The notes under the pieces are model-generated. The model had not been told where the DNA came from, did not search any database, and saw only the letters and a program-made list of their open reading frames with translations. Source: Escherichia coli (GTDB lineage: Bacteria > Pseudomonadota > Gammaproteobacteria > Enterobacterales > Enterobacteriaceae). Taken from it: a stretch of 64,000 bases of DNA. Numbering within the stretch: the first letter of the stretch is position 1; each line of letters starts with the position of its first letter. Made by a program: the position numbers and the translations under genes. The DNA is taken from assembly GCF_003790525.1 (NCBI RefSeq), contig NZ_CP033635.1, one strand, 5' to 3'. Positions 48,591-48,868 of this stretch are shown piece by piece.

Positions 48591-48868
48591 TAATTGTTTA
48601 CAGAAATATTGCCGAATAAAAATATAAACCATAGTCTTAAAAAATAATAATTCCACTAAAGCTATCCCAGAACAACCAGTACAAATAATAAAAGACATAT
48701 CACAGCAACACTCCACACTGACAGCGCAAAAATAAATGCCGCCTTTGTTATCTTCATATACAAGCAACCTGTCCTGATAATCACCAACTCATGTTTTATT
48801 CTTAACCATTCGTCACAAATACAACAAAAAATAACAGCAGCAGCACCGATATCACAATATAAGATACA

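Follow-up and report, generated by a model that had tools for sequence, protein, structure and literature searches.

An unannotated frame of 31 codons on the minus strand of an Escherichia coli prophage, referred to here as ORF31, may encode a genuine orphan small protein of the inner membrane. We advance this reading tentatively, as the best available explanation of the nucleotide and translated data. The frame lies within a stretch of 64,000 nucleotides (contig NZ_CP033635.1 of assembly GCF_003790525.1), the whole of which is termed the window, and the coordinates of the features under discussion are collected in Table 1. A sequence-only reading of the window had already picked out a hydrophobic 31-aa minus-strand ORF at this place, and both its coordinates and its translation are correct. 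Its description of the product as a small membrane peptide with a single transmembrane (TM) helix is compatible with all of the findings and fares statistically better than chance, whereas the likeness to type I toxins that it also proposed is unsupported. Missing from it were the continuity of frame with a regulator gene, a second hydrophobic mini-ORF ahead of ORF31, and the setting of both in an adhesin moron. These are added here, together with a better estimate of the Shine-Dalgarno (SD) element and a comparative genomic survey that proved not to be decisive.

Table 1. Features of the adhesin cassette, its 3' tail and its surroundings, in coordinates of the window
Feature	Position	Strand	Remarks
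ORF31	48662..48757	minus	ATG...TAG, 31 codons, MKITKAAFIFALSVWSVAVICLLLFVLVVLG; from translation and ORF listing
SD-like element AGGACAGG	48768..48775	minus	~8-10 nt upstream of ORF31 ATG; -5.6 kcal/mol vs anti-SD
Module end	48645..48661	minus	homology between prophage-type and island-type copies fades 12-17 nt past ORF31 stop
ORF25	48802..48879	minus	GTG start, 25 codons, hydrophobic, MLNNVSYIVISVLLLLFFVVFVTNG; Kyte-Doolittle 2.85
T6 run	48826..48831	minus	inside ORF25
G5 run	48886..48890	minus	SD-like element of ORF25, -8.6 kcal/mol, spacing 5-6 nt
Orphan regulator gene	48869..49324	minus	151 aa; sigma-70 region 4-type HTH, residues 87-130 (PF08281, 30.9 bits)
YadA-like trimeric autotransporter adhesin gene	49386..51002	minus	first cassette gene
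DUF4376 gene	51402-51977	minus	downstream of tail-fibre genes
GC-rich hairpin GGCGTGTT-N9-AACACGCC	48555..48579	.	between module and DinI-like gene, outside shared module
DinI-like gene	48238-48486	plus	convergent to cassette
yecD-like ORF	47302-47883		E. coli chromosomal flank
aspS	45235-47007		E. coli chromosomal flank

The ORF31 reading frame

Read directly from the minus strand, ORF31 starts with ATG AAG ATA and closes with GGA TAG, and a mechanical listing of open reading frames contains it as the ATG-internal portion of a 41-aa ORF with a TTG start (48662-48787). The predicted product begins with MKITK, carrying a charge of +2, and continues as a hydrophobic helix of 25 residues whose best 19-residue Kyte-Doolittle mean, 3.0, qualifies it as one TM helix. 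In having a short ORF with a predicted TM helix, a start codon and an SD element, ORF31 fits the sequence pattern of small membrane proteins of up to 50 aa. ORF31 is intergenic, and no ORF of at least 25 aa runs across it on the opposite strand. Among the 302 ATG ORFs of 25-70 aa in the six frames of the whole window it ranks second for hydrophobicity. The first is a 52-aa ORF on the plus strand (38717-38875), antisense within a 352-aa ORF on the minus strand (38261-39319); treated as a chance control, it shows that such frames appear about once per 64 kb by chance.

ORF31 is not annotated by RefSeq/PGAP in the E. coli records inspected, and no listed record has any feature across it. Metagenome and assembly gene callers do call it, on more than 200 public contigs, and GenBank annotates it once, as a 40-aa version described as a hypothetical protein (EKJ80020.1, E. 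coli AD30). A text search of the literature for the peptide string found nothing.

The region was correctly described in the sequence-only reading as AT-rich (GC 0.33-0.41). On the coding strand the 219-nt tail of the cassette consists of 42% T, 26% G, 22% A and 10% C, ORF31 itself has T/G/A/C proportions of 41/28/21/10%, and such a T-rich composition favours open hydrophobic frames. Chance was gauged by shuffling the local sequence (219 or 382 nt) 5000 times with its dinucleotide composition preserved. ATG ORFs of 31 aa or more are common in these shuffles (24% of the shorter and 46% of the longer), whereas one with a 19-residue Kyte-Doolittle maximum of at least 3.0 is rare (0.18 and 0.16%, respectively; p ~0.002), and two hydrophobic ORFs together were not encountered in any of the 5000. 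T occupies codon position 2 in 19 of the 31 codons of ORF31; the corresponding counts for positions 1 and 3 are 8 and 11. The hydrophobic periodicity of the frame goes beyond its dinucleotide composition (p ~0.002).

Translation and transcription signals

The ribosome binding site had been judged weak, which is only partly right. The SD element of ORF31 is moderate, standing at the 12th percentile of the 2142 ATGs in the window; it is comparable with that of aspS (-5.2 kcal/mol) and better than that of the adhesin gene (-4.1 kcal/mol), so that "weak" was an overstatement. Between 48758 and 48900, a span that takes in the interval separating the regulator gene from ORF31, there is no sigma-70-like promoter match on the minus strand. 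Expression of ORF31, if any, would consequently be as the last cistron of the adhesin/regulator transcript. At the RNA level the sense fold is not significant (z = -1.38), its MFE structure pairing the SD region with the 3' end of ORF31, the antisense strand is unstructured (z = +1.27), and an Rfam search of the region gave no match; on these grounds a structured RNA or sRNA at this locus was rejected.

Under the small membrane protein reading, the cassette would constitute a prophage moron operon in the order YadA-like adhesin, sigma70-r4 HTH regulator, ORF25 and, as the last cistron, ORF31. Read-through from the adhesin/regulator promoter would supply the transcript, ORF25 would be positioned for translational coupling to the regulator stop, and ORF31 would be translated from its own moderate SD element. 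We infer that the product is made and inserted in the membrane as one TM helix, with its short Lys-rich N terminus in the cytoplasm, and that its function is tied to the cassette; it may, for instance, modulate the regulator or the envelope while the adhesin is being produced.

The regulator gene and the second mini-ORF

The regulator ends in a K/R-rich stretch, RSGFRKGRFIKGRE. Stretches of this kind are a typical juxtamembrane motif, found ahead of a TM helix. Beyond the regulator stop (TAA, 48869-48871) the same frame stays open for 68 codons, down to the stop of ORF31; ORF31 thus shares the regulator frame and is separated from it by that one TAA and 37 open codons. An open run of 68 codons after the stop has a shuffle p of 0.005, and at least as many open codons also follow the stop in 15% of the long ORFs of the window. 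The in-frame position and the 37 open codons hint that ORF31 may once have been part of a longer gene, and sequence data alone do not separate a real small membrane protein from a leftover of the regulator gene.

ORF25, which together with ORF31 fills the 220-bp tail of the cassette, is arguably the better small-protein candidate of the two. It begins within the final codons of the regulator gene, so that start and regulator stop overlap, and its SD element is in the top 1.3%. One strain has lost a single CTG (48843-48845) from it in frame. An origin of ORF25 and ORF31 by tandem duplication was considered and is not significant (p = 0.05 at the protein level, p = 0.09 at the DNA level).

Two further interpretations of the regulator and its small neighbours were considered. 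An ECF sigma/anti-sigma pair, which would call for a sigma factor with regions 2 and 4 and a membrane anti-sigma with a cytoplasmic anti-sigma domain, does not fit: only region 4 was detected in the regulator, ECF models scoring far under their cut-offs, and downstream ORFs of 25 and 31 aa leave no room for an anti-sigma domain. Streptococcal SHP pheromone peptides, encoded beside Rgg regulators, show some resemblance; the present regulator is not of the RNPP type and the host is Gram-negative.

Fused forms in draft assemblies

A deposited 220-aa "sigma factor-like HTH protein" (MDC9149451.1, P0008 in our set) joins the regulator, the ORF25 frame and the ORF31 frame in one chain. It arises through two changes of homopolymer length: G5 to G4 carries the regulator frame into that of ORF25, and T6 to T7 returns the ORF25 frame to the common frame of regulator and ORF31, both being alleles of draft assemblies. 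Fused or half-fused forms number five (P0008, P0029, P0030, P0016 and P0023), those of 220/225 aa occurring in draft assemblies only, and the underlying length changes are seen at the draft loci L012 and L013. Three of the five (P0016, P0023 and P0029) come from assemblies or sequences with further frameshifts in view. AlphaFold gave the fused form a pLDDT of 48, with trivial TM helices only.

Complete genomes offer no counterpart. The T7 allele is absent at the best-matching copy in 183 of 183 (the T7 query matching at no more than 99.0%, with a single gap), and no G4 allele was found in them; the 81-nt stretch around the G5 run reaches 99% identity or more in 174 of the 183, and one lower-identity full-length match listed for this stretch, in E41, covers the same 81-nt span. 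As a true gene the fused 220-aa allele was accordingly rejected. With no complete genome carrying G4 or T7, the draft alleles are probably sequencing errors, and the constancy of T6 and G5 makes three separate ORFs the natural state. A sequencing artefact at homopolymers is the simplest account of the fused protein, and the 220/225-aa entries are probably long-read errors carried into the protein databases.

The adhesin cassette and its distribution

Along the minus strand the order is tail-fibre genes, DUF4376 gene, adhesin, regulator, ORF25, ORF31, hairpin and then the convergent DinI-like gene. The hairpin is likely to mark the end of the transcript in this prophage context. Beyond the DinI-like gene lies a 36-aa ORF on the plus strand (47880-47990), the N terminus of which we take to be that of K-12 YecE; on this reading it is a truncated yecE at the junction of a lambdoid prophage integrated in that gene. 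An O104:H4 prophage has a counterpart of the same tail region, 94% identical over ~65% of the query.

The adhesin gene contains 5.6 copies of a 99-nt (33-aa) unit that are 98% identical (49808-50364), and the alignable span of the repeat varies between strains. A 191-aa plus-strand ORF at 49779-50354 is an artefact of this repeat. About 35 nt upstream of the adhesin ATG there is a G7 run on the minus strand (~51035-51041), inside a 41-aa upstream ORF (50999-51124, minus strand) whose TGA overlaps the adhesin start (ATGA); this arrangement may act on the adhesin through phase variation or coupling.

The 300 bp around the two mini-ORFs were found in 183 of 5426 complete E. coli genomes (~3%), at 286-289 places and up to seven times per genome, with all copies chromosomal and at least 95% identical. 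Among the listed carriers many were isolated from poultry or humans, and some are named APEC; APEC IMT5155 and SMS-3-5 are examples of carrier strains. The contexts include lambdoid prophage ends beside DinI (22 genomes), IS256 remnants beside an aerobactin island, a lysozyme-inhibitor/nanE locus and a YaiO/glycosyltransferase locus. Common to the contexts is a block of 1165 bp (49814-48650) comprising the adhesin anchor, the regulator, ORF25 and ORF31, which is ~98.8-99.7% identical from one to another. The N-terminal head of the adhesin is not homologous between contexts, and 51254-51481 is again common, at 90%. Homology fades just past the ORF31 stop, which makes ORF31 the last element of the exchanged module and amounts to essentially one junction event.

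Insertion sequences target the tail of the module. In SFE8 (locus L004, 2652-3982) an IS3-family element interrupts ORF31 behind its third codon (48749-48755) and destroys it, in a cassette that is otherwise IS-riddled, with IS421 between adhesin and regulator. In TUM1886 (locus L010, 1919-3127) IS1414 lies between the module and DinI.

Conservation and selection

The 146-nt region of ORF31 is free of indels in 182 of 183 complete carrier genomes, but the copies are at most 3% divergent and no diverged homologue was found, which leaves conservation in homologous prophages without power as a test. Searching for such homologues with the 41-aa form of ORF31 in a word-indexed protein search returned only itself, and the same kind of search gave no relative of the regulator below 94% identity; HMMER, run with the fused 220-aa form against 1.84e9 representative proteins, found none below 82%. 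Among phages tblastn gave nothing significant and megablast no match, IMG/VR gave one copy (98%), and a PHROG match to the N terminus of the regulator is weak.

Across 11 aligned copies ORF31 has two SNPs, both nonsynonymous (V17I and V28I). The regulator has five, likewise all nonsynonymous, so the pattern in ORF31 does not discriminate, and no signal of selection could be extracted from these two and five changes. The protein variants of ORF31 observed overall are conservative hydrophobic swaps throughout: A6V, F10L, V17I, I20M, V28I and L30M. A6V, F10L, I20M and L30M were ascertained as protein differences and are nonsynonymous by construction; they were left out of the SNP counts.

Alternative explanations

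A less probable alternative is that ORF25 and ORF31 are what is left after gene fission: the decayed C-terminal membrane anchor, of one or two TM helices, of a longer tethered regulator. The shortening of the regulator to its 151 aa would then be due to a nonsense change or to frameshifting at the G5 and T6 runs, and ORF31 would be an untranslated or functionless remnant in the 3' UTR. The shared frame with its single TAA and 68 open codons (shuffle p = 0.005) speaks for this, as does the K/R-rich regulator terminus, of the kind that precedes a TM helix; single-base changes at just two places, each a homopolymer, suffice to create the continuous 220-aa HTH+TM+TM ORF deposited as MDC9149451.1 and P0029. 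The alleles concerned, however, are those found in no complete genome, three of the five joined forms come from assemblies or sequences with additional frameshifts, and no intact fused homologue exists among the 1.84e9 representative proteins. A relic would have no need of the correctly spaced SD and start codon that both mini-ORFs possess, the topology of the fused chain would put a net-positive loop between the TM helices in the periplasm, and open runs of 68 or more codons follow 15% of long ORFs in any case. That ORF31 is a chance ORF, a hydrophobic frame produced by the composition of a T/G-rich 3' UTR and selected by scanning 64 kb, is unlikely. The earlier caution that it may be chance holds to the extent that T-rich sequence encodes F, L, I and V and favours open frames, and ATG ORFs of this length appear in 24-46% of shuffles; the window contains another chance ORF that is still more hydrophobic, no annotation pipeline has kept ORF31 in RefSeq, and no signal of selection is measurable. 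Pure chance is nevertheless hard to reconcile with the T-rich second codon position and the shuffle p of ~0.002, with a pair of hydrophobic ORFs unmatched in 5000 shuffles, and with SD-like elements at functional spacing before both ORF25 and ORF31.

Far less probable is a type I toxin, that is, a membrane-depolarising peptide repressed by an antisense RNA and stabilising the prophage or island. Size, the single TM helix, prophage location and the pairing of SD region and ORF 3' end in the MFE fold would suit it, and from a plus-strand promoter-like match (9/12, 48753-48781) an RNA antisense to ORF25 and the regulator 3' end could arise. That site is directed away from ORF31, though, promoter-like matches in the region number 6, below the shuffle expectation of 7.6, and no plus-strand terminator is nearby for an antisense RNA. 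To the lack of an own promoter, of an Rfam match, of a structured antisense strand and of a significant sense fold is added the absence of similarity to Hok, Ldr, TisB, Ibs, ShoB, Zor, DinQ or Fst. NCBIfam gave no match, and Pfam and PHROGs returned weak non-toxin hits alone (Doppel, E = 0.016, below cut-off; phrog_29225, of unknown function, E = 0.3). The C terminus also lacks the polar or charged tail common in such toxins. The smallest chance of all is given to the idea that regulator, ORF25 and ORF31 form one slippage-switchable gene, alternating between a soluble 151-aa and a membrane-tethered 220-aa regulator. Slippage would occur at GGG-G in the G5 run (+1) and at U-UUU in the T6 run (-1), either as phase variation in the DNA or on the ribosome, and would link the regulation of the adhesin to the membrane. 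Both runs allow perfect tRNA re-pairing, and the product would be exactly the protein deposited from draft assemblies, the allele of which is absent from all 183 complete genomes. In favour of the small membrane protein reading stand the hydrophobicity beyond that of the shuffles, the intergenic position, the well-spaced SD elements of both mini-ORFs, the place of ORF31 within a shared block that stops 12-17 nt past it, the near-complete freedom from indels and the conservative nature of the protein variants. Against it are counted the frame shared with the regulator and the 37 open codons ahead, the lack of an own promoter, of a PGAP call and of homologues outside the near-identical module, an equally hydrophobic chance ORF in the window and the IS3 disruption in SFE8.

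Relation to known systems

E. coli reportedly possesses a whole class of inner-membrane proteins of less than 50 aa with a single TM helix, described by Hemm et al. in 2008. Examples are YohP, YncL, KdpF, AcrZ and MgtS. ORF31 resembles these in its size of ~30 aa, its one helix, its basic N terminus, its SD and ATG, and in having been overlooked by annotation pipelines. It differs in being confined to one near-identical mobile module, in being known from sequence alone, and in closing a prophage adhesin moron as its last cistron while sharing the frame of the gene ahead of it. Were it real, it would join the bacterial small membrane proteins as an orphan and would not represent a new kind of system. 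If translated, it would be an orphan membrane protein travelling with a horizontally spreading adhesin cassette, a further example of a tiny membrane protein passed over by annotation pipelines on mobile DNA associated with virulence, and a possible handle on the control of the cassette's orphan regulator; if a relic, it would record a regulator losing its membrane anchor. The effect on current understanding would be small either way.

With type I toxin systems (Hok/Sok, Ldr/Rdl, Ibs/Sib, TisB/IstR, ShoB/OhsC, ZorO/OrzO and DinQ/AgrB) ORF31 shares a small hydrophobic peptide on a mobile element, and it is set apart from them by having no antisense RNA gene, own promoter, structured 5' UTR or family match. 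The membrane-tethered one-component regulators ToxR, CadC and TcpP are built from a DNA-binding domain, a basic linker and a TM helix, and the fused form P0008 would reproduce this order as HTH, K/R-rich linker and TM helix. In contrast to these proteins, a stop and frameshifts divide its frames in every complete genome, it has no periplasmic sensor domain, and its HTH belongs to the sigma70-r4 and not to the OmpR winged-helix type.

A literature search on trimeric autotransporter morons found nothing specific. Lambdoid morons that follow the tail-fibre genes include lom, bor and cor, and the Eib trimeric autotransporters belong to prophages of ECOR-9. The present cassette occupies a similar position, between the tail-fibre/DUF4376 genes and the prophage end by the DinI-like gene, and is likewise AT-rich and exchanged between prophage backbones. 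Where it departs from them is in carrying its own orphan HTH regulator and two mini-ORFs.
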